Virus record (IMG/VR): IMGVR_UViG_3300003937_000247 | Strand: one strand, 5' to 3' | Source of the DNA: a virus | DNA: 64,000 nt | In this document: positions 22,358-59,921 of the stretch, piece by piece | How positions within the stretch are numbered: the first letter of the stretch is position 1 | Layout of the letters: each line of letters starts with the position of its first letter | Notes under the pieces: generated by a model | The model's input: only the letters and a program-made list of their open reading frames with translations | Told to the model about the DNA's origin: nothing | Database searches by the model: none | Position numbers and translations under genes: made by a program

Positions 22358-22372
22358 GTTCTCATTTTGTTC
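22358..22372. promoter_or_regulatory. alphaproteobacterial LexA-type box
   Basis: GTTC-TCATTTT-GTTC, intergenic, upstream of an early promoter. Confidence 0.6.
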
Positions 22373-22417
22373 TTATAATTATTCCTAAAAACCTAGTAAA
22401 ATCAACGCTTTTTGTGC

Positions 22418-22446
22418 TTGACTTTCTTATGTTTTTAGTGTATTAT
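22418..22446 (+). promoter_or_regulatory. sigma70-type early promoter
   Basis: TTGACT-N17-TATTAT, preceded by AAAATCAACG.TTTT also found at ~25011. Confidence 0.8.
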
Positions 22447-22456
22447 ATACGTATAA

Positions 22457-22876
22457 ATGATAAAAAACACTATGAAAAAACAAGTTTCCAAAGAATTATT
22501 AGAACATCTTAAACAGATGAACATCAAATCCCAAAAGTGGGTTGATGAAGACCCAAAACATAGATGGTCTTCAATGATTACAGAAGACCCAAAACATTGG
22601 GCAAATTACAAAATTTACACCCTAAAAGAATTTAAACATTATATGGCTGAATCTACACATTGGGATTTATACAAATCTATCAATGGAGTAAGACCTAGAT
22701 TTATGCAATATCATTTAATGACTACAGAAGAAATTGAAGCAGAAAATGACGCTATGTTCAAAGAACAAGAAGAACAAATTGCTGCTGAAAAAAAAGAGAA
22801 AGAAGATACTATAAAAAGAGTATCACAATACGGTAATTTTACCGAAAAACAATTAGAGAAATGGAGAGTAATATAA
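22457..22876 (+). CDS. early hypothetical protein
   Basis: First ORF after the early promoter; DLYKSINGVRPR. Confidence 0.6.
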   Translation: MIKNTMKKQVSKELLEHLKQMNIKSQKWVDEDPKHRWSSMITEDPKHWANYKIYTLKEFKHYMAESTHWDLYKSINGVRPRFMQYHLMTTEEIEAENDAMFKEQEEQIAAEKKEKEDTIKRVSQYGNFTEKQLEKWRVI

Positions 22877-22877
22877 T

Positions 22878-23321
22878 ATGAGTTTAGATACAAACATACA
22901 TCCTTTTAAAGAGGATTTAGGAAAGAACCTATACAGAAAGAAAACTTACTACACCTTATGTGTAGAACAAGAAGTATTGGCAAAAAATAAAGATGACGCT
23001 GATAATAAATTTATGGACGGTGGTGGAATAAACCATTCAAACATTGGTAGAGATTTAACAGATGAAAATCAAGGTGTTGAAACCTATATGGTAGACGCCA
23101 ACTATACAGATTCAGGTGATACTGAATATGTTGCTAAAGTTTGTTATGAAGATGATGAATTTGCTAAAGAAGATGGTTTTGTAGAATTAGATACCTATGC
23201 TTTAGAAGATGACATAATCAACGAAAAGGGAGATTGTGTTGCTAAAGAAAAAGAAATTAAACCTTTAGACGATTTAAAAAAAATTGTTGATGAACACAAA
23301 CCAATTAAGGCAATATTATAA
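22878..23321 (+). CDS. early acidic hypothetical protein
   Basis: ORF in a tightly packed operon. Confidence 0.6.
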   Translation: MSLDTNIHPFKEDLGKNLYRKKTYYTLCVEQEVLAKNKDDADNKFMDGGGINHSNIGRDLTDENQGVETYMVDANYTDSGDTEYVAKVCYEDDEFAKEDGFVELDTYALEDDIINEKGDCVAKEKEIKPLDDLKKIVDEHKPIKAIL

Positions 23322-23518
23322 TGATTGAAATATTAAAATTTATAGAAGAACTAGAACTATTACATAAAATGCTTACTGTTGACAATTCAATAGATGATGA
23401 CCCAAGGAAGATTTTTACTAGAGGTAAAATTAGAGAATTGCTTGCGAAGTATAAAAAAATAGAGTCAGATTTTGACATTCATTTAAATTTAGAAAATGAA
23501 AGTAAGTTAGGAAAATAG
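23321..23518 (+). CDS. small hypothetical protein, paralog of 32318..32500
   Basis: MIEILKFIEEL. Confidence 0.6.
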   Translation: MIEILKFIEELELLHKMLTVDNSIDDDPRKIFTRGKIRELLAKYKKIESDFDIHLNLENESKLGK

Positions 23519-23612
23519 TGAAATTAGGGGGATACAATCATACACAGACAGCTCTTAAACCGTCCCAGGAGGCGGCTATGAGAGGATTATTCCACGGAAA
23601 TATGAGGAAACA

Positions 23613-24035
23613 ATGAGAAACGGATATTTTGCAGTTGTATTGAATAAAGAGAGCTGTGATGCTGTGAGGAAATATTCCACGATGGAAGATGTAAAAGGAG
23701 ACCATATTACACTTGCATATAAACCAGATGATAAAACTTATGAACAGTTAAACGGATTGGTTAATGAGGATGTTGACGCTTATATTAGTGAGATAAGATC
23801 AAATAAAAATATAGAAGCATTGTGGGTTGACGAAATGAACTTAACTAGATTTCCATCAATAAAATTAAAAAGATTTAATCCAGGCCCAGCACACGTTACA
23901 ATATCACATAAGAAAGATTTTAAATCTGGTGACGCAAATAGTATGTTTAAAGATCCAGACCACCTTGTTCCAGTAGACCATACACACGAATTGGGATATT
24001 TGAAAGGTACAGTTAAATGGATATCATATGAGTGA
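23613..24035 (+). CDS. 2H phosphoesterase-family protein
   Basis: Two HxT motifs, DHITLAY and AHVTISH, about 70 aa apart. Confidence 0.65.
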   Translation: MRNGYFAVVLNKESCDAVRKYSTMEDVKGDHITLAYKPDDKTYEQLNGLVNEDVDAYISEIRSNKNIEALWVDEMNLTRFPSIKLKRFNPGPAHVTISHKKDFKSGDANSMFKDPDHLVPVDHTHELGYLKGTVKWISYE

Positions 24036-24169
24036 AAAAATAAAAGAATTACAAAAAGAAGTTAAAGAGTTGGAAGAAGAAAAAAAGATTACCAATTCTC
24101 AAGCAAGAATTAATGATATAGATGAGAGTATCTATAATACAAATCAAAGTATTGAAGAATTGAGGAAAT

Positions 24170-24619
24170 ATGAAAGACATTGATATGAAAACAGAAGCAC
24201 CAGAATTATACATTAATGGTATGGAGACTTTACCAGATGTAATTAATATGATTAAAGATACAATGGATGAAGGTAAAACTGAATCTGCTAAAGATTACTT
24301 AAATCAATTACAAGAATATTTAGCAAAAAGAGATATCAATATTTTAGAATTACAGGAGACAGGTGAAAAAATATTACAAGGACTTGAAAAAAATACAGAA
24401 ATTTTAGACCCACAACAAACAGTAGTTGATAATTTCCACGAGTGGAATATGAAACAAATGGATAGATATGAACCTGTTATGGTACTAATGACAATTTTAG
24501 GACAAACGTTGAAGATTATGAAATCGGCAATGCCTAAACACCAATACGATTCAATTATGGACAACGTCTATGAGTCGAAGGACAGAATTGAACCGTTTAC
24601 TAAACCACAAATACATTAA
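24170..24619 (+). CDS. hypothetical protein
   Basis: ORF with GAGG RBS. Confidence 0.6.
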   Translation: MKDIDMKTEAPELYINGMETLPDVINMIKDTMDEGKTESAKDYLNQLQEYLAKRDINILELQETGEKILQGLEKNTEILDPQQTVVDNFHEWNMKQMDRYEPVMVLMTILGQTLKIMKSAMPKHQYDSIMDNVYESKDRIEPFTKPQIH

Positions 24620-24628
24620 TGGAGGAAA

Positions 24629-24835
24629 ATGAAAACTTTAATGTCAATATTAGTATTAATCTGTTTAACAGTTAGTGCTAACGCAAATCCAGTATTGAAC
24701 TGGTTTGAAACTGAAAAAAACAAAACAATTGAGTTTCAAAAGAAATCGTGGGCTGATGGCAAAGTGCAATTAGCAAACACAAAACAATCTATTATAGACC
24801 TATTTCACAAGGTAACTAATGTTACACAGGATTAG
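24629..24835 (+). CDS. small secreted hypothetical protein
   Basis: Signal peptide, GGAGG RBS. Confidence 0.6.
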   Translation: MKTLMSILVLICLTVSANANPVLNWFETEKNKTIEFQKKSWADGKVQLANTKQSIIDLFHKVTNVTQD

Positions 24836-25010
24836 TGATTTCTGTAAAAAGATTGATAGTATCAAAGCCCAGGCGGATAAGTTGTATAATTTAAAGTATA
24901 ACAACACTAAAACGCCTGGTCGGGATGCTGAGATTAACCATTTAATAGAAGATATACAATCAACGTGTAAAATCGTTGGTGCAGATAAGACACCCTATCA
25001 AAAAGGTTGA
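24819..25010 (+). CDS. hypothetical protein
   Basis: ORF with AAGG RBS. Confidence 0.55.
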   Translation: MLHRISDFCKKIDSIKAQADKLYNLKYNNTKTPGRDAEINHLIEDIQSTCKIVGADKTPYQKG

Positions 25011-25032
25011 AAAATCAACGTTTTTAGAGAGC

Positions 25033-25061
25033 TTGACAAATCTGTTATATTATGATAGAAT
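25033..25061 (+). promoter_or_regulatory. sigma70-type early promoter
   Basis: TTGACA-N17-TAGAAT with extended TG. Confidence 0.85.
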
Positions 25062-25073
25062 ATATTACATACA

Positions 25074-25493
25074 ATGAAAATAAGTGAGAAGGACGATACT
25101 ATGGTAACTAAAGAAGAAATATTTGAAGAATTTAAGATTGCAAAACAAAAAGACATTGCAAAATCAACAACAAAACCACCTTATGAGAACTGTTTTAAAA
25201 ACAGATTAAAGTTATTAAAATCTCATAGGGACGCAAAAATAACAAATCCAAAAGTGTACAGACATTTACAAGTAAATTTTGATAATCTAATACTTGCTTA
25301 TTCGTCACCTGTACCTATTGACGCATTCTATAAGACAGTATTCAATAAGACATTTACTCAATATAATGAGTCTAAAAGAGTTGAAGATATGACAGAATTA
25401 CAAAAAGAAAAAGATGAAAGACGTAGAAAAAAAGAAAAAGAAGAATTAAAGAAACAAAAAGCTGAAGATGTTAAAGAAATTACTATTAATTAG
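25074..25493 (+). CDS. hypothetical protein
   Basis: ORF after the promoter; the start may be the second Met. Confidence 0.55.
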   Translation: MKISEKDDTMVTKEEIFEEFKIAKQKDIAKSTTKPPYENCFKNRLKLLKSHRDAKITNPKVYRHLQVNFDNLILAYSSPVPIDAFYKTVFNKTFTQYNESKRVEDMTELQKEKDERRRKKEKEELKKQKAEDVKEITIN

Positions 25494-25959
25494 TTGTTTG
25501 TTGTTACTTACAAATTGTGCCAGTAAGCAGTCTTATATAGGTGCTAGCACCACCGCAGCTGTTGCTGGTACAGCGTGTTGGCAGTATATAAGTGACAATC
25601 CTGCAGTTGTGGCGACTTGTGCTGTTGTAGGTTCATTTAAAGGTGCCGATATGATGAATAGTGAAACGGATGATCAATTAATGACAAGAGCATTTGTGGA
25701 TCATTTAGACAATGCACCTAATAGTCCAGGTTTTACAACGTGGATGAATCCTAAAACAAATAGTAATGGTATAATTAAAACTACAGGTTTCTATTTAAAG
25801 GGACCTATTAAATGTTCAATGGTTGAAGTTACACATAATCAGAATTTAGATAATACAAGATTTTTTGATTCAATATTATATGGAAATCCATATAGACAAA
25901 TACAATTACACGAAGTTTGTAAAATGCCCGATGGAAGGTGGATGATGATAAATGATTAA
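25468..25959 (+). CDS. lipoprotein resembling the 17-kDa surface antigen (RT0821/Lpp0805-like)
   Basis: Lipobox LTNC, small-residue zipper, TWMNPKT..G, C...CKMPDGRW. Confidence 0.6.
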   Translation: MLKKLLLISCLLLLTNCASKQSYIGASTTAAVAGTACWQYISDNPAVVATCAVVGSFKGADMMNSETDDQLMTRAFVDHLDNAPNSPGFTTWMNPKTNSNGIIKTTGFYLKGPIKCSMVEVTHNQNLDNTRFFDSILYGNPYRQIQLHEVCKMPDGRWMMIND

Positions 25960-26413
25960 AAATATTATAATTTTTGTACTGTTATTAATTTGTGTATCAC
26001 AATGTGGTGGTAACGATACGAAAGCAAAACAAATAGAATTAAAAGCAATGGATAACTTTTTTGATAAACTATTGCAAAATGCAACACCAATACCTTTAGT
26101 AGATAAACAATGTTTGAAATATGAAGATTGTCCTAAATGGGATGGTAATCCAGATACTAAAATGTATTATGACCTAATGAAAGGTCTTAACGGCTCTGGG
26201 AAGATTGAAAAATCAGACTTCAATTGGAATGTTCATCTATATCTATGCCACCAAAATAAGTTGTTGGATAGTATAAACGGTGAAGGTGCATTTGAAAGAC
26301 TTGCAATCATTTCAGCAAAAGACGGAATGATACCTTGTCCTATAGATAACAATCCACATTGGAATTATGATTGGGAAAATCATATATTAAAAGCTAGAGC
26401 GGAGGCAGTATGA
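25952..26413 (+). CDS. putative lipoprotein
   Basis: Signal peptide ending VSQC. Confidence 0.45.
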   Translation: MIKNIIIFVLLLICVSQCGGNDTKAKQIELKAMDNFFDKLLQNATPIPLVDKQCLKYEDCPKWDGNPDTKMYYDLMKGLNGSGKIEKSDFNWNVHLYLCHQNKLLDSINGEGAFERLAIISAKDGMIPCPIDNNPHWNYDWENHILKARAEAV

Positions 26414-26835
26414 TGAATAATAATTTTAAAAGAATTGTTATGTTTACATTTACAATTATAGCACTATTATTAATATGTAATATATTATACGCTGAAGATT
26501 CATTTGAAAACACAATTAAAAAAATAAACATATTAGAAAATGGAAACAATGAAGTCACTTATGATAAAATACAACCTTTAAAAGACCAGTATTGTTTCAT
26601 AAAAGTAAAAATTACAGAAGTTGATGGTGAAATCATCAAAGAAGAAGTTGTTGAATGTGCCGATGGTAGAAAGGCGTATGATGGACCAAGTTATTGGGAG
26701 TTATTCGCTATGTTTTATTATGGTGATATGAATACACCTGCCTATTGTAGGCATTATGAACGACCTAAACACGCATACCATAAACCTGGTAAAGTATGTT
26801 TAGACAAAAATGGAAACTGGGAGGTAAAAAAATAA
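26410..26835 (+). CDS. secreted Cys-containing hypothetical protein
   Basis: Signal peptide, 4 Cys, C-terminal CLDKNGNW. Confidence 0.55.
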   Translation: MMNNNFKRIVMFTFTIIALLLICNILYAEDSFENTIKKINILENGNNEVTYDKIQPLKDQYCFIKVKITEVDGEIIKEEVVECADGRKAYDGPSYWELFAMFYYGDMNTPAYCRHYERPKHAYHKPGKVCLDKNGNWEVKK

Positions 26836-26928
26836 TGATAAAAGGTATAATAACCCTAGTAGTACTATGGATAATCATAGCTTTTACTTGGGATCCATTT
26901 GTATCAACAGTTGAGAAAACACAGGCTG

Positions 26929-26957
26929 TTGACAAAACTAAGGAATTAGTGTATAAT
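26929..26957 (+). promoter_or_regulatory. consensus sigma70 promoter inside the upstream small gene
   Basis: TTGACA-N17-TATAAT. Confidence 0.8.
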
Positions 26958-26988
26958 GTGTTTAATAAAGCGAAGGAGAAAGTGAAAA

Positions 26989-27597
26989 ATGAGTAAAGTA
27001 CTCAAATATATAATAATTGGTTTATTAAGTGTCACGCTTGCAAATTGTTCAAGCAATACTTATAAAATCAAAAAAGAAAGCAAGAATCAGGTACTAAAAG
27101 TTCCTTCTTGGTATATGAAAGACTATTCCGAGAATAAAGAATGTGGTACTAAAATGTTCGGCAAAAAGAAAGACAAAAAATGTGTCTTCGGTGTCGGAAC
27201 TTCTACATCACCTGACCTAGAATTGGCAATTGACAAGGCGACAATGATCGCTAAGGCTGAAGTTGCTGATAAGATAAAAGGGGAGATGAATAAGAAGGCA
27301 AAGATTTTTACTACCGAGTTAGGTAAATCTCAAACCAAAACTGTTGTAACAGATGTTGAAACAACTATAGTAAACATTATTAAGAATACACCAGTACGTG
27401 GTTATGAAGTATTTAAGCAAGAGGTAACTTTAACGAAAAATGGTTACTACCGTGCTTGGATAGGATTAAGATTGCCTATGGGACCATACAACAAGATGTA
27501 CAATTATTCTTTAGAAGAAATAGTTGACGCTTACAAGTTAAAAGAACTTGCTGAAAAATCGTATGATGAAGTAGAGATAATTGCTAATGAGCAGTAA
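26989..27597 (+). CDS. LPP20-like lipoprotein
   Basis: Lipobox LANC; VPSWY, GVGTSTSPDLELAIDKATMIAKAEVA. Confidence 0.6.
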   Translation: MSKVLKYIIIGLLSVTLANCSSNTYKIKKESKNQVLKVPSWYMKDYSENKECGTKMFGKKKDKKCVFGVGTSTSPDLELAIDKATMIAKAEVADKIKGEMNKKAKIFTTELGKSQTKTVVTDVETTIVNIIKNTPVRGYEVFKQEVTLTKNGYYRAWIGLRLPMGPYNKMYNYSLEEIVDAYKLKELAEKSYDEVEIIANEQ

Positions 27598-27856
27598 AAT
27601 CCAAATATACTCAAAGCCTAATTGTACTTATTGTACAAAATCAAAACACTTGATGAAAACGTTAGGCTTTGAATACGAAGAACATATGTTTGGGAAAGAT
27701 TTTACTACACCTGAACAGTTATTTGAGGCAATAGGTAAACAAGTACGAACTATGCCTCAAATTGTTATAGAAGATAAACATATCGGCGGCTATAACGAAT
27801 TAATAGAGTATTTTGCCGATAAGAAGTTAGTAAATTACAAAGGTGAAAAAATATAA
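27587..27856 (+). CDS. glutaredoxin (T4 NrdC-like)
   Basis: CTYC, RTMPQI, HIGGY. Confidence 0.9.
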   Translation: MSSKIQIYSKPNCTYCTKSKHLMKTLGFEYEEHMFGKDFTTPEQLFEAIGKQVRTMPQIVIEDKHIGGYNELIEYFADKKLVNYKGEKI

Positions 27857-28268
27857 TATGAGTGATGATGGACAATTAGAATTTGATTTTGGGTTAGAAT
27901 CTAAAATACCCGATAATGTAATATTATTTCCTAAAATACCTTTACGAAGACCTAATTGGGCACAACAAAAATTAGACGCTAAAAAACAAGATATGTTGAG
28001 AAGACAACACAATCAGGTTTACGTACAGGCCATTACAGAACAATTAACTGAACAGATGTTATTAAGATTAAGAGAAGAAAACATTAACATAACAACAAAA
28101 GAATTTTTAAGTGACTATAAGTTGTCACTAGAGGCGCTTAAGTCTATGTTGCTTAGGGCAGTACATATGAAACACCCATTACAACAACGTGTAGATAGGG
28201 CGGTCAAATGTAAACAAGGAGAAGGTAAGGACGTATATGCCATTACCATTGACTATAACAAATTTTAA
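27843..28268 (+). CDS. hypothetical protein
   Basis: DNVILFPK ... HPLQ pattern seen in T4-like phages. Confidence 0.55.
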   Translation: MKKYNMSDDGQLEFDFGLESKIPDNVILFPKIPLRRPNWAQQKLDAKKQDMLRRQHNQVYVQAITEQLTEQMLLRLREENINITTKEFLSDYKLSLEALKSMLLRAVHMKHPLQQRVDRAVKCKQGEGKDVYAITIDYNKF

Positions 28269-28505
28269 ATTAGATAACAATATGCGTAACATTTATATAA
28301 TTGCAAATATATTAATCTGTCTGGCTGAACATAGTTTAAGAGGACTAAACGCATGGACAAGGAGGGTTATGGGCGAATGCCTGAAGACACCTTGGGCAGT
28401 TTTGAGTAGGGACCTATCTTGCAATAGATGGACTCTTCCTGGAAGATTGTGGGTGAGTTCCAACAAATCCCACGACAGACACATATTGTTATCTAATTTA
28501 AAATT
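28261..28505 (+). ncRNA. candidate structured non-coding RNA enclosed by a 24-bp perfect inverted repeat
   Basis: IR 28261-28284 / 28482-28505; GC-rich core with several nested stems. Confidence 0.6.
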
Positions 28506-28599
28506 ACAGAATTCCATAAAGCACTTTGGGATAATTGCTAGTACTGGCAAAGTTAGCAATTCTAATTATAATGCCACAATAGAAAAGGAGATTTAAACA

Positions 28600-28932
28600 A
28601 TGTTTAAATTTTTATTTAAAAACGACTCATTAAGAGTTGTATCAAAATCTAAAAGAAAATCTACTAGAGGTAGAAAAACTTTATCAAAAAGAGTTAAAGT
28701 TTTAAATCTTTTAAACAAAGGCGAATCTGTTACTTGGAAGACTTTAAGAAGCAGATTTGATCTAGTGTCTCCAAGAGCACTAGTTGACACATTGAGATCA
28801 GAAGGTAATATGATCTATGTTAACAAATCAGCAAAAGGAACATCTTATAGAATAGGTGAACCTACAAAAGCGATAATCGCTGCTGGGATCAAAAAATTAT
28901 ATGGTACTCCGTACGCATATAAAACTGCCTAA
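28600..28932 (+). CDS. basic winged-HTH-like hypothetical protein
   Basis: VLNLL..GESVTWKTLRSRFDL.SPRA.VD.LR.EG.MIY pattern. Confidence 0.55.
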   Translation: MFKFLFKNDSLRVVSKSKRKSTRGRKTLSKRVKVLNLLNKGESVTWKTLRSRFDLVSPRALVDTLRSEGNMIYVNKSAKGTSYRIGEPTKAIIAAGIKKLYGTPYAYKTA

Positions 28933-28943
28933 TACTCATTGAG

Positions 28944-28980
28944 TATAAATAGAGGTATAGGGGTAGGGAGACTTACCCCT
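28944..28980 (+). promoter_or_regulatory. late promoter followed by a stem-loop
   Basis: TATAAATA 28944-28951; AGGGGTAGG-gaga-CTTACCCCT 28959-28980. Confidence 0.65.
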
Positions 28981-29008
28981 TTACACATAACAAAATGAGG
29001 AGGCAAAT

Positions 29009-29497
29009 ATGCCAATGACATCCGCACAATTAAACGCAGGTATGGACACATCAGGATCAGGTGCTCCACTACTACACGAAATCTTACTAAAAGTAAACAA
29101 CGCAAAAGACAAATCCCAAAAAATTGAGGCTCTGAAAAAGAACGATTCAGTACCTTTAAGACAAATTTTAAAAGGTGCTTTTGATCCTAGTATCAAGTGG
29201 GATTTACCAGAAGGTACGCCACCATATAGAGAAAATGACGCACCAGCAGGTACAGAACACACGTCCCTATTTACAGAAGCCAAAAGATTATGGCACTTTG
29301 TAGAGGGAGCAGATAAGAAAACTTCCAGAACGAAGAAAGAAATGATGTTTATTCAATTGCTTGAAGGATTACACGCTAATGACGCTAAACTTATGATTTC
29401 AGTTAAAGAAAAAGAACTGAATCTCGTATATAAAGGGTTAACAGACGCTGTGGTTAAAGAAGCATTTGGATGGAATGCAGATTACAAAACATCCTAA
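29009..29497 (+). CDS. conserved T4-like hypothetical protein (DUF6433-like)
   Basis: FDPSIKWDLPEGTPPY...KKEMMFIQLLEGLH. Confidence 0.7.
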   Translation: MPMTSAQLNAGMDTSGSGAPLLHEILLKVNNAKDKSQKIEALKKNDSVPLRQILKGAFDPSIKWDLPEGTPPYRENDAPAGTEHTSLFTEAKRLWHFVEGADKKTSRTKKEMMFIQLLEGLHANDAKLMISVKEKELNLVYKGLTDAVVKEAFGWNADYKTS

Positions 29498-29544
29498 TAT
29501 AAATATTGTAGAGTGATTCTATAATATTTCAACTATAGGGTGTA

Positions 29545-29559
29545 GAACAAAAGTAGAAC
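29545..29559. promoter_or_regulatory. alphaproteobacterial LexA-type box
   Basis: GAAC-AAAAGTA-GAAC, intergenic, ~70 nt upstream of an early -35. Confidence 0.6.
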
Positions 29560-29628
29560 ATTCTACTTGACAGATTGTCGCACCCTATAACCCTTTGATT
29601 TTACACAATTATTTACTCCATTTTTTGC

Positions 29629-29657
29629 TTGATTTATAGTGCAATATCTGATATATT
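29629..29657 (+). promoter_or_regulatory. sigma70-type early promoter
   Basis: TTGATT-N17-TATATT with extended TG; CCATTTTTTGCTTG is shared with the 59.8 kb promoter. Confidence 0.7.
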
Positions 29658-29698
29658 AGTACTATGAAATCAAATAATTATAAGGAGAGATATATATT

Positions 29699-29893
29699 AT
29701 GGGTAAAGTAAAACAATGGGCTGAAGATACAGCCGAAAAAGCAGTTGATACTGTCCTTGTTAAATTGACAAAAGGATTAATCAATAAAGAAGTTGCTAAA
29801 ACTGAAATTATGAAGTTAGATGTAAATTTAGGTCTAGTAGGTATTGACGAATTTAATATAGATGAAGTTATTGATGAGGCCGCTAATGCGTAA
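29699..29893 (+). CDS. early hypothetical protein
   Basis: MGKVKQWA..., AGGAGA RBS. Confidence 0.65.
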   Translation: MGKVKQWAEDTAEKAVDTVLVKLTKGLINKEVAKTEIMKLDVNLGLVGIDEFNIDEVIDEAANA

Positions 29894-30206
29894 ATCATTT
29901 TTAATATTATTTCTAGTATTCATTTATACTTGGTCTTGGGCAATATTTAATGCTGTCAAGGCTGACGACTATAACACCGCAGTTATTGGACACGTTATAT
30001 CTGAAAAAATTAAAGGCACAAATATTGATACGTCATATATAATGGAGCAAGAGATAGAAAAACTTGTACATAAGTTTGCTATTGATTCAGTATATATTTT
30101 GCAGGCATACCTTCCACAAATATTAGAAGGTGTTGCGAGTGATTTAAGATTAAAACTTGACGAAAAATACAAAAAGGAAATTTTAAATGGCGAAAACAGT
30201 AACTAA
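29862..30206 (+). CDS. secreted hypothetical protein
   Basis: Signal peptide; likely start ~29886. Confidence 0.5.
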   Translation: MKLLMRPLMRKSFLILFLVFIYTWSWAIFNAVKADDYNTAVIGHVISEKIKGTNIDTSYIMEQEIEKLVHKFAIDSVYILQAYLPQILEGVASDLRLKLDEKYKKEILNGENSN

Positions 30207-30615
30207 AAAAACTAGAAAAAAGAAGGCAATTAAGTTAAAGAAAAAACTTAAAAGAGAATTTTCTTTAAAAAGAAAATATAAGACCACCTACAAAGATATT
30301 AGGATTTGGTTTAAACAATTTAATGACACCGTATTTGAAGGTAAACTATCTCCATTCGGACAGGTAGAAATAAAAGATTTAGCAAGAGAAAAATGTATAG
30401 GACAAGTAGTGACCTTGGAATGGAAAAGAAAAGGAACAAGACTTTTTAGATTAGAGATGTTACCTGACTATCCTGAAAAGAAGGATTTTTTAGATACTTT
30501 AGTACACGAAATGGTACATTTATATCAAATGCAAAATTTAGGAGATACAGGAAACCATAACGATTTGTTTTGGTCGTTTGAACCAAAAGTAAACTACGTA
30601 GGTTTACGACTATAA
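30187..30615 (+). CDS. SprT-like zinc metallopeptidase
   Basis: FNDTVFEGKL, DTLVHEMVHLYQ, H...F. Confidence 0.75.
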   Translation: MAKTVTKKTRKKKAIKLKKKLKREFSLKRKYKTTYKDIRIWFKQFNDTVFEGKLSPFGQVEIKDLAREKCIGQVVTLEWKRKGTRLFRLEMLPDYPEKKDFLDTLVHEMVHLYQMQNLGDTGNHNDLFWSFEPKVNYVGLRL

Positions 30616-33627: not shown

Positions 33628-33631
33628 ACAT

Positions 33632-36703: not shown

Positions 36704-37147
36704 ATGAAGAAATTTCTAGCTTCTATATTAATGTCAGTTTTATTAATATTTGTTGTAATGCAATTTGCGAATGCTGAAGAACCAAAACTACTTGATGAAG
36801 AACCAAAGATAAAGAGAGAATCACCTGAAGTAACGCCATATGAAGAAGGCAGACTTTATTGGATGCAAATGCCAGTTGTTTGTGGTACTACTAAAACAGT
36901 AAAAGATTATATTGATGAACATAAATTTATATTAGTTTATGTTGGTGTTGGTAAACAAGGTGGTAAAGATACTGGCGAACCAGTTTACTTGATAAGTGAA
37001 TATGTAACGCAAGATATGAAACAATCTTTGTCAGTAACAACAACATTGACATTAACAGAATCGTGTATAATGTTAAGAGGTTTTGATTTACAGTTTAGAA
37101 AATCACCTTTAACAAAGGGGACTTCAATATTGGAGCTCCAAACTTGA
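36704..37147 (+). CDS. secreted hypothetical protein
   Basis: Signal peptide; MPVVCG...SCIM. Confidence 0.55.
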   Translation: MKKFLASILMSVLLIFVVMQFANAEEPKLLDEEPKIKRESPEVTPYEEGRLYWMQMPVVCGTTKTVKDYIDEHKFILVYVGVGKQGGKDTGEPVYLISEYVTQDMKQSLSVTTTLTLTESCIMLRGFDLQFRKSPLTKGTSILELQT

Positions 37148-37152
37148 AATTT

Positions 37153-37389
37153 GACGTTGAAGAATAGACAATAACTAGTGAGGACGTGGGTGCGATTCCC
37201 ACCACCTCCACCAATTCAAAACACATTATAGTGTGCTTTAAGGGGGTGAGTAGATTCGACTGCTACTAAAACTATTTGGAGTTAAATCGCTGACAGCGTA
37301 CTGTTAAAACTATAAACGACAATCACATAGATTATCGTATGGCTGCTTAGGCAGTCGGGGTTTGCCTGTACCTTGCAACAGAAACAGGC
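37153..37389 (+). ncRNA. ssrA: circularly permuted two-piece tmRNA (alphaproteobacterial type)
   Basis: T-arm GTGGG-TGCGATT-CCCAC and CACCTCCACCA (ends 37213) precede GGGGGTG (37242). These pair as a 7-bp acceptor stem with G3:U70. Tag ORF 37318-37350 reads (A)DNHIDYRMAA*. Outer ends are approximate. Confidence 0.9.
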
Positions 37390-37417
37390 TTGACATTTTA
37401 CGCTAATATGATATAAT
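37390..37417 (+). promoter_or_regulatory. sigma70 promoter
   Basis: TTGACA-N16-TATAAT with extended TG. Confidence 0.8.
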
Positions 37418-37441
37418 ATATTAATAAGAGGTAAAAATTAT

Positions 37442-51838: not shown

Positions 51839-52027
51839 ATGAATATAACGAAGCAGGCTTTTATGGTCCTACATATAGGATTTTTTTTCGTATTAATTTT
51901 ATTACTATTAAGTTGTGCTAATGTAAAGTTTAATTGTGATATAACTAATATAGAAAGTCCCAACATAGAGGGCGCGGTTGAGGAATGCAGGGATAACCCA
52001 ACTGCAATGATTACAAAGGAATTCTGA
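51839..52027 (+). CDS. small putative lipoprotein
   Basis: LLLSC lipobox. Confidence 0.45.
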   Translation: MNITKQAFMVLHIGFFFVLILLLLSCANVKFNCDITNIESPNIEGAVEECRDNPTAMITKEF

Positions 52028-52106
52028 GGATGGCTAATATTATACATAGTGATGTTAGTCCCTCCAGAGAAGTGCTAGAGCTAGCATTATTACATATAAG
52101 GAAGGT

Positions 52107-52448
52107 ATGATTACACTTACGCAAAACGCAATCACGCAATTAACTAACATAGCAAGTAAAGCAAATACTCGTTATGTGAGATTAGATATTAAGGGTGGTG
52201 GTTGTGCAGGCTACGAATACAAATGGTCTACTACAGATATAAGGGAAGATACAGATTGTTTATTGGAAGATGTACTTATTGTTTCAATGGAATTAGAAAT
52301 GTATTTACTAGGGACTTCGTTAGATTGGACAACGGATACGTTTAAGTCGGAGTTTACGATAACTAATCCTCAAAGCAAATCAGGATGTGGCTGTGGTGAA
52401 TCGTTTAGTTTAAGGGAAGATATAGGAGATGGAGGTAATTACTCCTAA
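52107..52448 (+). CDS. A-type Fe-S carrier (IscA/SufA/HesB family)
   Basis: GGGCAGYEY, NPQSKSGCGCGESF. Confidence 0.93.
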   Translation: MITLTQNAITQLTNIASKANTRYVRLDIKGGGCAGYEYKWSTTDIREDTDCLLEDVLIVSMELEMYLLGTSLDWTTDTFKSEFTITNPQSKSGCGCGESFSLREDIGDGGNYS

Positions 52449-52598
52449 AAAATTTTCGCATATCTTCGAGTCTATTTAAAGTGTAACTGTGCGGCCTTTT
52501 TCAATAAATAGTAATATGTTAAAACTGTTTATTATCTTTTGGTTATTAATGATATTGATTGCTGTGGGTATGGGATATTACCATGGACATATAATAAT

Positions 52599-53465: not shown

Positions 53466-54294
53466 ACGCCCACGCTTTTTCATAACACCAGAAACATTGC
53501 CAACACCAAGCATTAAAATCTCTTGTTTGTCTAGCAGAACCTACACAAGACCGAGTTATAGGAAATAAGTCTTTCATTAGACCTTCTTCTCTAAAGACAC
53601 CAGCAACAAATTTCTTATTAACATTTAACCAAGGTTGATATACATTATATCTTAATTCTGGTTTGTCATTTACATCACGTCTTGCTTCTCCTTGTACTCT
53701 ATCAATATCTGTTGCTGTATAATTGTTTGATGGAAATCTAGCTTTCACAGCGTCACCAAATGCCATACGAACAGCCTTCGGTGGGTTCTTACTCATACCG
53801 TCAAGTCTAATAGGTCGGTCAATTGTTTTCATAAAGTTTGGTATTAATTTATCCAGTTGCATTACCTTTGCTACCTGTACTACAGACATTGTGCTGTATG
53901 CGTCATCTGAAGCTATAAGTTCTTTTGCTTTAGGCCAGTAACCACCAACCTCTCTATCATTAAAATCACCTATGGTAATATCATTTAACTTACCATCTGG
54001 AAATCTCATTTGGAGATATTCTACTATTGCTGTAGCTGCTACAGCGTCTTTCGGTGCGTTTACATCATTACAACAATACGGATATATTTCTATTTGTGGA
54101 AAGTGTTTTAATGTTAGATAAGTTGCAGCCGCTGAATCACAACCACCTGATAATGATACAACAACCCTTTTAGGTATAAACTTTTCATCAAAGTCTATAT
54201 CTTTTAAACAATTTTCTTTGTAAGGTGATTTTTCTACCAATGATTTTATTTTTGTATAAAACTCTACTGTTTGATTACCATATGTTATGTGCAT
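53437..54294 (-). CDS. QueC-like PP-loop ATPase
   Basis: SLSGGCDS; TRSC...CWQCFWC zinc site. Confidence 0.7.
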   Translation of the reverse strand: MHITYGNQTVEFYTKIKSLVEKSPYKENCLKDIDFDEKFIPKRVVVSLSGGCDSAAATYLTLKHFPQIEIYPYCCNDVNAPKDAVAATAIVEYLQMRFPDGKLNDITIGDFNDREVGGYWPKAKELIASDDAYSTMSVVQVAKVMQLDKLIPNFMKTIDRPIRLDGMSKNPPKAVRMAFGDAVKARFPSNNYTATDIDRVQGEARRDVNDKPELRYNVYQPWLNVNKKFVAGVFREEGLMKDLFPITRSCVGSARQTRDFNAWCWQCFWCYEKAWAFNLPRTHNA

Positions 54295-54295
54295 A

Positions 54296-55066
54296 TTATT
54301 TAAATACTCCTTGTCTTACTTTTCTCCAACGCTCTAGTTCTGGCGTTACATTAAAGTATTCCTCATTTTTTATTTTTTTAACTATATTTTTTTCACTAGG
54401 TTTAGGAAAGTTCTCATATTGCTTTTGTACATTTTTTCTTAATGTTCTGGACTTTGGATCAAAACCTCTATTTGTTTTAACCAGTAATAAGGTCATACCT
54501 TCCTTTTGTGCAATTTCTTTTGCTTGTTCTATTTCGTGTTCGTTGTAACCGAATATAATATATTGCCATACAATAGCGTGTCCCATTTGTACACCTAGTT
54601 GCATTGATTCCCATACTTGTTTAAAGTTTGAACCAATACGATAGATTTCGCTTTTAACATCTAAGCCATCTACACCAAAGTACCAAGAGTTTTCTCCTAA
54701 TCCATAACTGTATGCTTTTTCCCACCACTTCATATCCATACTACCGTCTTTTGTATTTGTACCATTGGTTGCAATTCTCAACCCTTTACCTAAACCGTCC
54801 ATCATTTCTAAAAATGCTAGAAAATCAGGATGATATATTGGGTCTGATATTTGGCCACAAAAGGTTATTTGATTTTCGTAATAGTTCAATATTTTTCTAA
54901 ACTCGTTTTTACCTATATCAAATGATCTTTTTATTCTTGGAAGGCCTTCTACTTTTTGACGGAGACATTGTGGACAACGCAATATACATCTATGCGATAA
55001 ATCCATATTCGGTGATGAAAGTTTTTGATTTCTTATATAGAAGTCTGTTAGTTTTTCTTGTATCAT
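54296..55066 (-). CDS. radical SAM enzyme (no fused SPASM)
   Basis: CILRCPQC, FCGQISDP, TNG, FGVDG, YRIG, WQYIIFGYNEH. Confidence 0.85.
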   Translation of the reverse strand: MIQEKLTDFYIRNQKLSSPNMDLSHRCILRCPQCLRQKVEGLPRIKRSFDIGKNEFRKILNYYENQITFCGQISDPIYHPDFLAFLEMMDGLGKGLRIATNGTNTKDGSMDMKWWEKAYSYGLGENSWYFGVDGLDVKSEIYRIGSNFKQVWESMQLGVQMGHAIVWQYIIFGYNEHEIEQAKEIAQKEGMTLLLVKTNRGFDPKSRTLRKNVQKQYENFPKPSEKNIVKKIKNEEYFNVTPELERWRKVRQGVFK

Positions 55067-55386
55067 TTTTTATAAGTATCTTTTTCTCTATTGCCACATT
55101 TATATTGGCATTGTTTCAAAGCACAACTAGGATTATTTATTAGAGCGTCAAAGAAGTTTTCCCATTCTTTAGAACCATATATGTCTTCTAACTTCTCTAC
55201 ATTTTTTAAAGCAAGGTGTTCATCTTTCAAATGGAATACTTCTTCTACACCGTGGTCGTTTTTAGGGTCATCTAACCAACAACAAGGTAACATAAAACCG
55301 TCTGCTGTATATGCAGCTGGTTTATGATAACTTTTAGGTTGATAAGTCAAACATCTAGGTTTGATTTTTATATCTTTTGCTTCCAT
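55063..55386 (-). CDS. stand-alone SPASM/twitch-like Fe-S domain, copy 2
   Basis: PRC...ADGFMLPCCW...C..QCQYKCG. Confidence 0.7.
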   Translation of the reverse strand: MEAKDIKIKPRCLTYQPKSYHKPAAYTADGFMLPCCWLDDPKNDHGVEEVFHLKDEHLALKNVEKLEDIYGSKEWENFFDALINNPSCALKQCQYKCGNREKDTYKK

Positions 55387-55691
55387 TTCACATTACCACA
55401 TTTATATTGACAATAATTCATAGCCTTACTAGGTCTATTTATTATAGTATCAAAAAATGCTTCCCATTCTTTAGAACCATATATTTCTTCTAACTTGTTA
55501 ACGTTCTTTACTGCAAGATGATTATCTTTTAAGTGCCATACTTTTTCTACATCATCATCCACTTCAGGCTGATCTAACCAGCAACAAGGCAACATAAAAC
55601 CATCTGCTGTATATGCAGCTGGTGTATGATATTCATTCTCCATTGGAAAAGTCAAACATCTAGGTTTTATCTTTATGTCTTTTTCGTCCAT
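55368..55691 (-). CDS. stand-alone SPASM/twitch-like Fe-S domain, copy 1
   Basis: PRC...ADGFMLPCCW...YCQYKCG; tandem paralog. Confidence 0.7.
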   Translation of the reverse strand: MDEKDIKIKPRCLTFPMENEYHTPAAYTADGFMLPCCWLDQPEVDDDVEKVWHLKDNHLAVKNVNKLEEIYGSKEWEAFFDTIINRPSKAMNYCQYKCGNVKWKQKI

Positions 55692-55697
55692 AGTATA

Positions 55698-55726
55698 ATT
55701 ATATCACTTAATCTTACTATTGTCAA
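55698..55726 (-). promoter_or_regulatory. consensus sigma70 promoter giving a leaderless mRNA
   Basis: TTGACA-N17-TATAAT on the minus strand, ATG 7 nt downstream. Confidence 0.8.
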
Positions 55727-56583
55727 GCCTTGCCATTTCCTGAACCATTGGCCATTTTCTTTTTGAATACTTCCCAATCTTGTTCATATCTTTCGTCATT
55801 TACCCATACATCAATTTTTTCAAAGTTATACCAATACTTCTTTATTATATCTTCATCTATCATTGATGGAAAAACCCAGTTTTCATCTGGTAGTCCTTTT
55901 TTAGCTTCCTTGACTTTTATATCTCTATTATATACATACGGATGTACTTTACGTTCCAAATTTTCATTTGGGTAACCAACACCCACAAGTAATCTAGGCT
56001 CTGTTAAACAACTCAATAGATTTTCTATAGAGTCTGGATTATTAGCACCTTTCTCAAAGGCACTACAGAAACCTGTTTTGTAACCAAGTAAGGCTGCTGA
56101 CATAGTTAATTGGCCAGACGATATCCCTATTGACATTGCTTTTTGTTCAAACAAAGTTTCTTTTGCTATTGGCGAAGCTTTGTCTGATCTAGCAGCTATT
56201 ATATGTGTACCACCTCTTAAATTTTTCTGGTCATCACAAAACACAAAAACAGCGCTAGCACGTATTTGTGAATTTTCAACAGCATATCTTTTATCTGACT
56301 TGTGAAGGTTGTCCTTCGCCTTATCAGTAAAAATTTTATCTGTTTCTTTGTTTGTTTGAAAAGTAAAATTTTTTGATCTATCATAAATTTCTTTTATGAC
56401 AACAGGATCAGTATATACTCTTAAATTAAAATGTGTTTCATTTTGTTTTGATGGAGAATTTGAAGCAACATAAATTAGAGTTTCTAAATCCTTTTGTGGT
56501 ATGGATTTAGTCAAGTCATAGTTTCGCTGTGCTCTTTTCGCCACATCAATTGCATTAATTATTTCATTATTTGTATTATTCAT
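55723..56583 (-). CDS. nitroreductase-family protein
   Basis: RAQRNYD, SPSKQN, IGISSGQL..SAALLGYKTGFC, VGVGYP. Confidence 0.75.
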   Translation of the reverse strand: MNNTNNEIINAIDVAKRAQRNYDLTKSIPQKDLETLIYVASNSPSKQNETHFNLRVYTDPVVIKEIYDRSKNFTFQTNKETDKIFTDKAKDNLHKSDKRYAVENSQIRASAVFVFCDDQKNLRGGTHIIAARSDKASPIAKETLFEQKAMSIGISSGQLTMSAALLGYKTGFCSAFEKGANNPDSIENLLSCLTEPRLLVGVGYPNENLERKVHPYVYNRDIKVKEAKKGLPDENWVFPSMIDEDIIKKYWYNFEKIDVWVNDERYEQDWEVFKKKMANGSGNGKA

Positions 56584-56599
56584 TTTGTCTCCTTTTAAT

Positions 56600-56614
56600 T
56601 ATTTATTATAAATA
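56600..56614. promoter_or_regulatory. back-to-back late promoters
   Basis: TATAAATA (+, 56607-56614) and AATAAATA (-, 56600-56607). Confidence 0.6.
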
Positions 56615-56680
56615 TAAGTGAGTATATAATCTTATATTTAAATCCCGAACATTGCTAGAAATCAAACGAAGGACTTATAT

Positions 56681-56938
56681 ATGGCAGTAAAGCCTAAAAA
56701 GATTACTATGTCTTCCTTAAAGAGGAAAGCTCCAAAAGTGCCTGGCTTGACGTGTATTAATATTGATAACGTTATAGGGCAATTGGAGAAGTTAGTTGAA
56801 CATAAGAAGAAATTAGATAAAAGACAATTAAAGTCTTTAGTGAAAAGATTAGAAAGATTACGAAGCACCAATGAATCATTAAGAGATAGTGGTATCTATT
56901 GGTATGAAAAACTTAAACACTTATTAAAAACGAGGTAG
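56681..56938 (+). CDS. basic hypothetical protein
   Basis: APKVP..TC..ID...LR..NE.LRDSG.YWY. Confidence 0.6.
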   Translation: MAVKPKKITMSSLKRKAPKVPGLTCINIDNVIGQLEKLVEHKKKLDKRQLKSLVKRLERLRSTNESLRDSGIYWYEKLKHLLKTR

Positions 56939-57134
56939 ATTTATGAATTACTACTTTACAGGTATTTTGATATTAATGTTTATAGCACTAACATTGCTAG
57001 TGAGCCCTAATTGGCCGATATCTTAATTGATTAACGTTTAGTTAAAAAGAAAAAAGAACAGAATATAGCACCTAATACAATTACTCTCAACTCTATTGGT
57101 GAATTCCAGAATATGTCAAATATTTCTATCATTA

Positions 57135-58454
57135 TTAAAATTTGTTGTGGACTAATTTCATCCAGTTATAGTTTCTATGAATGGCCAGTACCGAAGTGAT
57201 CTTATTATTTTCAAAATCAATAACAATGTTTTGACCACCGAAGCCGTCCATAATTAATATAGGTTTATTTCTTTTACCAGACATACCTACATAAAATTGT
57301 CCAGCATACGAGTTTGAATTAGACATACCCTTTGTAGTATCGTTTACTCTAAAACCTTTATCTATTTTATTTTCATATAAAGATTTTAAATATTGTCCTT
57401 CGCAAGTATTATTATTCCAATCATTTAACATTGCAACAGCAATTCTTAAATAATCATATCTTGTTATGTGCATTCCATAAGTTACTGTGGGTTGTTTTCT
57501 TTTTGCACCACGTTGTTTATAAAATACCATATCATATTCAATTCCCACTTTATCAACAAAAATTTCATTTAACATTTTTTTAAATTCTTTATCACCCATT
57601 TTATATAATATATAACTAGCAATTATGTTTGTATTCATATTTGAATACCAATATTTTTTATTTTCTGACGCCGTTGAGTTTTTTAATTCTTTACTTAATA
57701 GACTTTGAACGGAGTGACCGTTAACCCATCTTTTTGAGTTTCTAAAACTTGTATTATCAAAATACTTTTGGTCACCAGCAGCCATATTTAAAAGATTGAT
57801 TAATGGTTGTCCTTCGTATAATGTATTTTCTAAAATATCCCAATTTAATGGTTGATGTATACCATCAACGTATCCTCTACAAACAGCGTGGCCTGTTATG
57901 TATGAGAATATAGATTTACCAACCGAGTTGGAAACGTATCTAGTTTTATTTTTAAAAATTTTACCAAATCTATCTTTAGGAGTAATTTCATCTATCACAA
58001 CCGCACCATTAACATACATTAAATAACTTAATAGTGCTGTTTCATTTAATTGTTCAATTACAAAATCGTCCGTTTTAAGATTAAACTTAAATTCTTTTAT
58101 TTTATTCTTTTTCTTTTTTATTTTAAAGAAAACACGATTCATCTCATTAGGATTACCATAACTAATATATTTTTTTAAATAATGTTTTAAGATTTTATTA
58201 TCTGGAGTTGCATCCTGTGGAATCTCACCTGAATTATAAGGATAACCTTTCGTAGGAGTATTTCTATCATCAATTGTTTTAACTTTAGGTTCTTCTTTAT
58301 CACCACCACACTCATTATAATACCAGAGCATGGAATATTGTTTTTCTGTATTACAATCAAACGCATTCGCTCTCGGTACATAACATAGGAATAAACCTAT
58401 TGTTATAAGTCCCAAAAGTAGATTTATTTTAATTATCGTCCAAATTATTCTCAT
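57135..58454 (-). CDS. serine hydrolase, beta-lactamase/class C-like family, with signal peptide
   Basis: SxxK (SVGKS), LLNMAAG, YSN, DGFGGQ. Confidence 0.8.
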   Translation of the reverse strand: MRIIWTIIKINLLLGLITIGLFLCYVPRANAFDCNTEKQYSMLWYYNECGGDKEEPKVKTIDDRNTPTKGYPYNSGEIPQDATPDNKILKHYLKKYISYGNPNEMNRVFFKIKKKKNKIKEFKFNLKTDDFVIEQLNETALLSYLMYVNGAVVIDEITPKDRFGKIFKNKTRYVSNSVGKSIFSYITGHAVCRGYVDGIHQPLNWDILENTLYEGQPLINLLNMAAGDQKYFDNTSFRNSKRWVNGHSVQSLLSKELKNSTASENKKYWYSNMNTNIIASYILYKMGDKEFKKMLNEIFVDKVGIEYDMVFYKQRGAKRKQPTVTYGMHITRYDYLRIAVAMLNDWNNNTCEGQYLKSLYENKIDKGFRVNDTTKGMSNSNSYAGQFYVGMSGKRNKPILIMDGFGGQNIVIDFENNKITSVLAIHRNYNWMKLVHNKF

Positions 58455-58457
58455 ATA

Positions 58458-58799
58458 TTATCTTTTATAAATTGCAAATGATGTAGCGTGTTGTTTTATA
58501 CAATGTGATTGGTCTCTATTGTAGATACCTGGGATACTAGGACCCCTATATTTAATTCTCCAACTACCGTTCAATTTACCAAAGGCATAATACAACCCTA
58601 ATAGATACATAGGTATATTTTTTGCAATTGATTCTTCATTGTCGGGACTTCTATAAGTTCTTAAAAAAGCGTCAAAGTTATTACTCATATTTTTAAGAGA
58701 AATTCCCTTTATAAAATTTGGGAAAGGTTGTTCGTTTGGAATATTGAAAACAACACCATTTTTCATAAAAGTGTTATTGTTTAATTTTAAAGTACTCAT
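58458..58799 (-). CDS. early hypothetical protein
   Basis: RIKYRGPS...C.K..A..FAIY. Confidence 0.55.
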   Translation of the reverse strand: MSTLKLNNNTFMKNGVVFNIPNEQPFPNFIKGISLKNMSNNFDAFLRTYRSPDNEESIAKNIPMYLLGLYYAFGKLNGSWRIKYRGPSIPGIYNRDQSHCIKQHATSFAIYKR

Positions 58800-59035
58800 T
58801 ATGCAGTCTCCTTTACAAAGTGATAAAATGCAAAGTCATTAGTAGGTGACAATACAGTTTTGTTTTCTAAATTACTTCTTAAATATGATTCTTTAGAGAA
58901 TACACACTCAATAGAATCGGTTTGTATTAATTTATTAATAACTACATCAATTTGAGAATTGATTATATTATTAGTATGTGGATTTTTTTGTATATTCATC
59001 AACGATTTGATGATTTGTGATTTTTCTATTTTCAT
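58799..59035 (-). CDS. early hypothetical protein
   Basis: Coupled ORF. Confidence 0.55.
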   Translation of the reverse strand: MKIEKSQIIKSLMNIQKNPHTNNIINSQIDVVINKLIQTDSIECVFSKESYLRSNLENKTVLSPTNDFAFYHFVKETA

Positions 59036-59292
59036 TATGATATCCTCGCTGGGTCTTGGTTAACAATTTCGTCATATCCGTGAACACCACGAGCAGAGCG
59101 TAAACCGTTGTTTAAAGTATCATATCCGTTTTGGATATGTGAAACTTGGTCGTGTAAATTCATTGAACCACCGTGTGATTCAGAATGCATACGATCCAAA
59201 TTTGATAATATGTTTAAATTTAATTCTATTTGGTCGTTCAATCTTTGCATATTTGCAAGTGCTTGAGCAATCATTTGGTCAGTAGTAATCAT
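59035..59292 (-). CDS. early hypothetical protein
   Basis: Coupled ORF. Confidence 0.55.
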   Translation of the reverse strand: MITTDQMIAQALANMQRLNDQIELNLNILSNLDRMHSESHGGSMNLHDQVSHIQNGYDTLNNGLRSARGVHGYDEIVNQDPARIS

Positions 59293-59672
59293 TATATTCT
59301 TTCATTATTAGAATACCAAATAGACTCATATGTTCCGTCTCCTGATACTCTTTCCGTTTCGTGTACTGGTCCTCTAATTGTAAAGTTCCAATGTTGAAAC
59401 ATTGTGTTGTTAGTGATTAATCTTTTATACATTTTACGTGCTTTTTCTAAAGTCGTATAAGGACCAGCATAATCAGTATGATCCATAAGTTTAAAGTCTA
59501 AATCAGCGTCTCCCATATGCAATTCAGAAATATAATAGTTCTTTTCTAAATGTGCAGGATATTCGGATTTAACTAGTAGGGTTTCCAACATTACTTGTTT
59601 TCTCCCATAGTATAGATTGATAAAAATGCCGAAACTATCATAATTCCGAACATTACAAAAAACATTGCCCAA
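59292..59672 (-). CDS. early hypothetical protein (likely start ~59591)
   Basis: YAGPY.TLEKAR. Confidence 0.5.
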   Translation of the reverse strand: MGNVFCNVRNYDSFGIFINLYYGRKQVMLETLLVKSEYPAHLEKNYYISELHMGDADLDFKLMDHTDYAGPYTTLEKARKMYKRLITNNTMFQHWNFTIRGPVHETERVSGDGTYESIWYSNNERI

Positions 59673-59815
59673 TTGTCATTTCCTAGACAATGTCCTCCAC
59701 AATCCTCAATAAATCCAACTGCCATAATAGCAGCGAATATCGTAGTTAATGAAAATATAAAATTCATAGTGTTTTTCCTTCTGTTTTCTCTCATTATTAT
59801 AAGTATATAATACAC
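59591..59815 (-). CDS. small two-TM early protein (likely start ~59767)
   Basis: AVGFIEDCGGHCLGNDNW. Confidence 0.55.
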   Translation of the reverse strand: MYYILIIMRENRRKNTMNFIFSLTTIFAAIMAVGFIEDCGGHCLGNDNWAMFFVMFGIMIVSAFLSIYTMGENK

Positions 59816-59835
59816 TATTTTTCAACGGAAAACAA
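59807..59835 (-). promoter_or_regulatory. sigma70-type early promoter
   Basis: TTGTTT-N17-TATTAT; TAGTGTATTATATAC is identical to the 22.4 kb promoter. Confidence 0.7.
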
Positions 59836-59906
59836 GCAAAAAATGGTGAAAAAGTCCGTTTTTTTCCCTTATTTTCTGCGATTTTTTGGTATTTTTGGCA
59901 AAAGAT

Positions 59907-59921
59907 GTTCTTATTTTGTTC
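59907..59921. promoter_or_regulatory. alphaproteobacterial LexA-type box
   Basis: GTTC-TTATTTT-GTTC, intergenic, ~70 nt upstream of the minus-strand early -35. Confidence 0.6.

Follow-up and report, generated by a model that had tools for sequence, protein, structure and literature searches.

Putative SAR11 LexA operators beside promoter modules of an uncultured T4-like pelagimyophage

The virus record IMGVR_UViG_3300003937_000247 was analyzed over a stretch of 64,000 nucleotides (the window). By its gene content, the window is part of an uncultured pelagimyophage, a T4-like phage related to Pelagibacter phages Mosig and HTVC008M. It carries three copies of an extended GAAC-N7-GAAC motif, each upstream of a sigma70-like early promoter. 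The three motifs are almost certainly operators for the LexA protein of a SAR11 host; LexA binding at these positions is inferred, and it is well supported by the presence of the same extended motif on the host's own SOS promoters. We consider it rather likely that these operators, which lie in the upstream parts of phage promoter modules, act by an occupancy type of negative control. Part of the phage programme is probably tied to the host SOS response or interferes with it.

GAAC-N7-GAAC is matched six times in the window as compared with 1.37 matches expected from shuffled sequence. The extended motif AGAACAAAA-N3-GAACAT, which specifies 15 bases, is found without mismatch at three sites only. 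There is no copy with one mismatch in the window, and the next best copy has two mismatches and lies inside an open reading frame (ORF). Site 1 occupies positions 22355–22374 on the minus strand (extended motif 22356–22373, GAAC-N7-GAAC 22358–22372). It begins directly after the stop codon of a RuvC-like gene (21786–22355) and is oriented away from the downstream promoter. Site 2 is at 29543–29562 on the plus strand (extended motif 29544–29561, GAAC-N7-GAAC 29545–29559). Site 3, at 59904–59923 on the minus strand (extended motif 59905–59922, GAAC-N7-GAAC 59907–59921), is located in a divergent early/late control region. All three boxes fall in non-coding gaps of a window that is ~92% coding.

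With a weight matrix built from SAR11 host operators alone, sites 1, 2, and 3 scored 22.5, 23.9, and 22.2 bits. None of 300 dinucleotide shuffles of the window contained a site of 22 bits or more, and the mean number of sites at or above 20 bits was 0.037, ruling out a chance origin of the boxes. An earlier reading made from the letters of the sequence alone (the sequence-only reading) had reported GAAC-N7-GAAC at the same coordinates and on the same strands, had described the three copies as intergenic with a common extended consensus, and had argued that three such sites would not arise by chance. Each of these statements agrees with the present analysis.

The window encodes gp5, gp6, a baseplate wedge subunit, NrdA and NrdB, and a RuvC-like resolvase. 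Mosig is among the closest cultured phages, with 58% identity to the window in gp6 and 82% in NrdA; the corresponding values for HTVC008M are 54 and 76%, and gp6 of the OM43 phage Melnitz is 52% identical. A circularly permuted, two-piece transfer-messenger RNA (tmRNA) of the alphaproteobacterial type was detected at 37099–37441 on the plus strand by ARAGORN and by Rfam models RF04321 and RF01849, with the tag peptide DNHIDYRMAA. A permuted tmRNA has already been published for Melnitz, Mosig, and related contigs (PMC9004378). The similarity of gp6 and NrdA together with the alphaproteobacterial-type tmRNA forms the basis both for assignment of the window to the pelagimyophages and for the view that the host, judged from the closest cultured phages, is most probably a member of SAR11 (Pelagibacteraceae). 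A DNA search of an annotated phage collection for close relatives returned a single short match. Near-identical copies of the region 21500–30500 (99–100% of the words sampled) occur in marine metagenome runs belonging to at least 15 studies; the phage is abundant and widespread. Its gene content is that of a T4-like virulent phage, its closest isolates are lytic pelagimyophages, and the 64-kb window shows no sign of lysogeny genes.

The direct repeat GTTC-N7-GTTC is the LexA operator of Rhodobacter, Sinorhizobium, and Caulobacter. The window contains three exact copies of this repeat (GAAC-N7-GAAC as written here) with a common extension. The sequence-only reading had named the motifs alphaproteobacterial LexA boxes, and this naming is strongly supported by the host genomes. 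SAR11 genomes were located by a scan for a SAR11 16S probe sequence. A lexA gene scoring above the family cut-off was found in all of an initial five Pelagibacteraceae genomes and then in 117 of 121 (116 of 120 when the unpublished genome G054, which was counted in this tally and whose sequence was not used, is left out). The SAR11 LexA protein has LexA_DNA_bind and S24 domains. The alphaproteobacterial LexA motif class is named in PMC3323433, and the SAR11 recA, lexA, and umuDC/mucA genes behave as a co-induced SOS group (PMC2864753; PMC12753301).

The lexA, recA, and umuDC genes of SAR11 each have a conserved GAAC-N7-G(A/T)AC box upstream. The lexA box, GAAC-N7-GAAC with an AT extension, is ~20 nt before the start codon in all 29 loci. 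At recA, 27 of 28 loci (30 of 31 with three further genomes) have a GAAC-N7-GTAC box, which is flanked by a −35-like and a −10-like hexamer. The box of the umuD-like/umuC-like operon, GAAC-N7-GAAC, extends into the start codon in 18 of 20 loci. Host boxes are placed between or over the −35 and −10 elements or on the transcript start. In a degenerate motif scan about four operator regions were found per SAR11 genome of 1.3–1.4 Mb, namely lexA, recA, umuDC, and a site adjacent to a ribonucleotide reductase (RNR) gene. The last of these is a conserved GAAC-N7-GAAC box in the divergent region between the gene for the RNR large subunit and a phosphoglucomutase/phosphomannomutase gene (L429, G001:C1:36378–39394, box 1501–1517). 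Its position suggests that the supply of deoxynucleoside triphosphates in the host may be under SOS control. At the SAR11 lexA promoters (L248–L276, L435–L445) two or three boxes overlap, one arm being an inverted GTAC/GTTC that ends at the start codon, and this array is denser than those at recA or umuD.

The phage and host sites are closely matched. Over its 18-nt core, site 3 has exactly the sequence of the umuD operator found most often in SAR11; site 1 and the SAR11 recA operator agree at all but 2 of 18 positions, and the second half of site 2 is identical to a half of the SAR11 lexA operator. On the host matrix the window sites, at 22.2–23.9 bits, lie inside the range of the host sites (14–26 bits). 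Outside the box, nothing is shared between the surroundings of site 3 and those of the host umuD operator; the flanks of phage and host sites are unrelated, and the phage box is therefore not a captured piece of host promoter DNA. The phage boxes have the same direct repeat, 7-nt spacer, and extended half-site (A-GAAC-A) as the alphaproteobacterial LexA operator. They differ from the host copies in being carried by a virulent phage genome and in their placement: host operators overlap the core promoter or transcript start, whereas the phage copies are 10–100 nt upstream of a −35 element or beside T4-type late promoters.

A binder other than LexA was also considered. Response regulators of the OmpR/PhoB type read direct repeats 11 bp apart as well, and the boxes are direct repeats with an 11-bp period placed upstream of promoters in the manner of activator sites. 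Many small early ORFs of the phage are without known function, and one of them could encode a regulator, in which case the likeness to LexA sites would be a coincidence or mimicry. We regard a phage-encoded or OmpR/PhoB-type binder as quite unlikely, since the occurrence of the same extended motif on the lexA, recA, and umuDC promoters of more than 100 SAR11 genomes is a signature of LexA alone and the motif is absent from Melnitz, a sister phage of a non-alphaproteobacterial host (OM43), in which no site exceeds 15.2 bits on the host matrix. E. coli-type CTGT-N8-ACAG boxes were examined as a possible host-matched counterpart in Melnitz; the six matches are all inside ORFs and give no evidence for such a role. 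A Type I restriction/modification target was rejected by reasoning only, since it would not fit a motif that is enriched in the phage and also lies on host SOS promoters.

The boxes recur in cultured relatives, with four intergenic boxes in HTVC008M and three in Mosig, every one of them 10–100 nt upstream of the −35 element of a sigma70-like early promoter. In both phages one box precedes the large "peptidase"/CobS operon. The number of box sites is two to five per genome.

Conservation was strongest at site 3: all 59 related IMG/VR loci that extend over the site have a box, which occurs in either orientation and with some 10 different spacers. Relative to NATAAATA, the late promoter of the baseplate operon, the position of the site-3 box ranges in 59 of 60 loci from a 1-nt overlap to a distance of 12 nt on the upstream side. 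At site 1 a box is found in ~56 of 80 related loci, again in both orientations and always 41–46 nt from the −35 element, and where an additional gene has entered behind the RuvC-like gene, box and promoter module have shifted together. Variants of site 1 that lack the box have a hairpin instead. About half of 80 loci related to site 2 have a box. It forms a 22-nt insertion within the loop of a hairpin that is conserved and covaries, and relatives that lack the box have the hairpin without this insertion. Most contigs that span both sites 1 and 2 retain at least one box. Among 53 unique variants of the box almost no change is seen in the half-sites or in the A on either side of them, the variation being at two spacer positions and in the flanks. 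Inverted boxes hold their position to within 3–4 nt (45 versus 41–42 nt at site 1 and 9 versus 12 nt at site 3). Because the half-sites are invariant while spacers, flanks, and orientation vary, the pattern fits selection on a protein-binding DNA site and not on an RNA element.

An RNA element as the common denominator of the three sites was rejected, as no Rfam family was found at any of them and only site 2 folds significantly better than shuffled sequence, sites 1 and 3 being unstructured. The wider proposal that the motif has no function of its own, being either part of an RNA structure or terminator or a piece of a repeated promoter/stem-loop cassette spread by recombination, draws on the other strings shared by the promoter modules, on the nesting of site 2 in a conserved hairpin, and on the behavior of box and hairpin as exchangeable modules. 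This proposal is very improbable. The sequence between box and promoter is not homologous among the three sites, two of the sites are unstructured, the half-sites are constant while spacers and flanks vary, and inverted copies hold position. The match to host operators would also be left unexplained.

The promoters behind the boxes share the form TGCTTG-N20-TANNNT, at 22415–22446 (plus strand), 29626–29657 (plus strand), and 59838–59807 (minus strand). The sigma70-like early promoter at site 1 (22415–22446) consists of TTGACT, 17 nt, and TATTAT and heads small ORFs from ~22457; that at site 2 (29626–29657) consists of TTGATT, 17 nt, and TATATT and heads small ORFs from 29699; and that at site 3 (59807–59838, minus strand) consists of TTGTTT, 17 nt, and TATTAT and heads leftward small ORFs, the first of which starts at 59768 and encodes a small hydrophobic protein. 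The gaps from box to −35 are 45, 69, and 71 nt for sites 1, 2, and 3, in line with the 45–72 nt given by the sequence-only reading, and the further strings that it had listed as common to the promoters are present in the window.

Two of the boxes also have T4-type late-promoter motifs nearby. A TATAAATA motif at 29498–29505 (plus strand) directly follows the stop codon of the gene at 29009–29497, upstream of site 2. The same motif at 59972–59979 (plus strand) is the late promoter of the rightward baseplate operon, which contains the genes for a PAAR-like protein, a wedge subunit, and gp6. In 29 of 38 box-bearing relatives of site 2, NATAAATA is 38–40 nt upstream of the box.

The sequence-only reading had proposed that host LexA gates early gene expression. 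The part of this proposal that stands is the occurrence of LexA-type boxes in a phage whose host encodes LexA, but the boxes are outside the early core promoters. As no box overlaps a sigma70 early core promoter, LexA is unlikely to repress these promoters in the classical way. Activation by way of a fixed protein contact is also unlikely, given that the box may be inverted and that its distance differs between loci. An occupancy role is the most likely one because orientation is free while position within each module is kept. In an undamaged cell LexA dimers would occupy the phage boxes and would serve as an occupancy-type block or insulator on late-type and read-through transcription in the box-bearing modules. 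At sites 3 and 2 LexA would block the adjacent late-type promoters, where the T4-type RNA polymerase and sliding clamp dock or pass. In T4 the clamp gp45 reaches the late promoter complex by sliding along DNA and docks at the upstream end of that complex (PMC2988020). At site 2 LexA may in addition act as a roadblock ~30–45 nt into the late transcript, a role suggested by the position of NATAAATA 38–40 nt upstream of the box, and at site 1 it would block read-through from the upstream gene. Cleavage of LexA upon ultraviolet (UV) or other damage, or upon infection itself, would lift the block, so that part of the phage programme would follow the SOS state of the host. Replicating phage DNA would sequester some LexA as a by-product.

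A stricter form of occupancy control would make host LexA a checkpoint on T4-type late transcription, acting directly upstream of the baseplate late promoter, at the docking place of the gp55-polymerase and the sliding clamp, and as a roadblock behind other late promoters, with virion production requiring LexA cleavage. We think this form unlikely. If it were true, a strictly lytic phage would possess an SOS-gated pause, which would provide a basis for delayed or dormant infections of slow-growing SAR11 cells that are released by UV or DNA damage.

Several observations weigh against occupancy control by host LexA. The host of this uncultured phage is inferred only, and the SAR11 LexA motif derives from comparative genomics and the established alphaproteobacterial motif. 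Melnitz is a single negative-control lineage. No phage box overlaps a sigma70 core promoter. The placement against the late baseplate promoter seen in 59 relatives does not hold in this window, in which a distance of 50 nt separates the site-3 box from the late promoter, making it an outlier among 60 loci and placing it beyond a normal polymerase footprint. A late motif is absent near site 1. At sites 1 and 2 some close relatives have the box and others do not. In the baseplate region of HTVC008M the arrangement differs, the box lying between the late motif and the start codon. Because box geometry thus differs among the three loci and HTVC008M, a single common local mechanism is not evident.

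The main rival is a LexA sink, a possibility that the sequence-only reading had also raised. In that case the boxes would have no local role; multiplying with the phage DNA, they would bind up the few LexA molecules of the tiny SAR11 cell. Derepression of the host SOS regulon (recA, umuDC, and possibly the host RNR) would then benefit the phage. The phage sites are as strong as the best host operators, and there are three of them per 64 kb of phage DNA as against the four or so operator regions of an entire SAR11 genome. One host box adjoins the host RNR gene, and host nrd and SOS genes rise together in pelagiphage infection (PMC12753301). Variation of box orientation and −35 distance between loci, and the retention of at least one box in most contigs that cover sites 1 and 2, also suit a sink. 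A sink would nevertheless not need a fixed position, yet at each locus inverted boxes, too, stay within a few nucleotides of the same position; all 59 relatives retain site 3 at one control region; and the phage genomes have only two to five sites each. As a complete explanation a sink therefore seems improbable to us. It is compatible with local occupancy control, and the two are not mutually exclusive.

LexA control is a hallmark of temperate phages, and LexA-controlled switches of such phages and of other mobile elements include those of CTXphi (rstA), coliphage 186 (tum), and GIL01 (with gp7). As in those systems, host LexA operators are carried on phage DNA, and damage would alter phage transcription. 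In the temperate switches, however, LexA guards the decision between lysogeny and lysis and the operator overlaps a promoter, whereas here the phage is lytic and T4-like and the boxes are outside the early core promoters. Lytic T4-like cyanophages have PhoB boxes ahead of pstS and phoA, and NtcA sites occur in cyanomyophages. There, too, the binding site of a host regulator has been taken over by a virulent marine T4-like phage, whose genes can thereby respond to host physiology. The present sites differ in that LexA and DNA damage are concerned, the host is SAR11, and the downstream genes are small ORFs and a baseplate operon and not auxiliary metabolic genes. In the literature searched, no paper was found that links LexA to pelagimyophages, T4-like phages, or cyanophage genomes, and the two pelagimyophage genome papers make no mention of LexA or SOS.

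Few biological entities in the sea are as abundant as SAR11 and its phages. If a virulent T4-like phage does maintain conserved, host-matched LexA operators, lytic infection of SAR11 would read or manipulate the DNA-damage state of the host. Such a link would bear on daily or UV-driven patterns of viral lysis, on inefficient or delayed pelagiphage infections, and on the takeover of a host with very few regulators. From the host analysis the SOS regulon of SAR11 is also defined comparatively for the first time, as a very small set (lexA, recA, umuDC, and the site beside the RNR gene), and the LexA box may be of use as a host-prediction marker for uncultured phages. The proposal is testable with existing cultures of HTCC1062 and HTVC008M or Mosig.

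The site-2 box is enclosed by a conserved hairpin at 29534–29589 (plus strand) with a fold z-score of −4.3 and stem covariation in 80 related loci. It is one of two conserved hairpins in the interval 29506–29589 (plus strand) between the late-type and the early promoter (related loci L023–L102). The stem of the second hairpin covaries among relatives as GGGTG/CACCC, GGGAC/GTCCC, and GGGAGT/ACTCCC. A related hairpin takes the place of the LexA box in some relatives of site 1 (e.g. L355 and L372). The hairpins at sites 2 and 1 look like the stem-loop/promoter cassettes of T4-type phages reportedly described by Arbiol et al. in 2010 as PeSL (promoter-early stem-loop). Those cassettes are said to be repeated intergenic modules of stem-loop and early promoter that flank variable small early genes and move from one position or genome to another. 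The window and its relatives show promoter strings in common and covarying hairpins, and the likeness is to this general description of PeSL. PeSL cassettes are not known to carry a host repressor site, whereas here a LexA box is added to the stem-loop, nested in it, or replaces it.

Six RNA-library runs contain the region as assembled contigs only, from which starts, ends, and levels are not readable. One such contig spans site 2. A pair of contigs ends and begins at 22445 and 22456, near the predicted start of the site-1 transcription unit, which is a weak hint from assembled contigs only.

At 30040–30120 of HTVC008M (L334) the late-type motif CATAAATA is embedded in the spacer of a divergent early promoter on the opposite strand, and the LexA box lies between CATAAATA and the first start codon on the baseplate side. 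Elsewhere in the window, the minus strand at 9680–11317 encodes a CHASE2 sensor fused to a class III adenylate/guanylate cyclase domain. A copy of the box with two mismatches at 10668, within this ORF, is probably due to chance.

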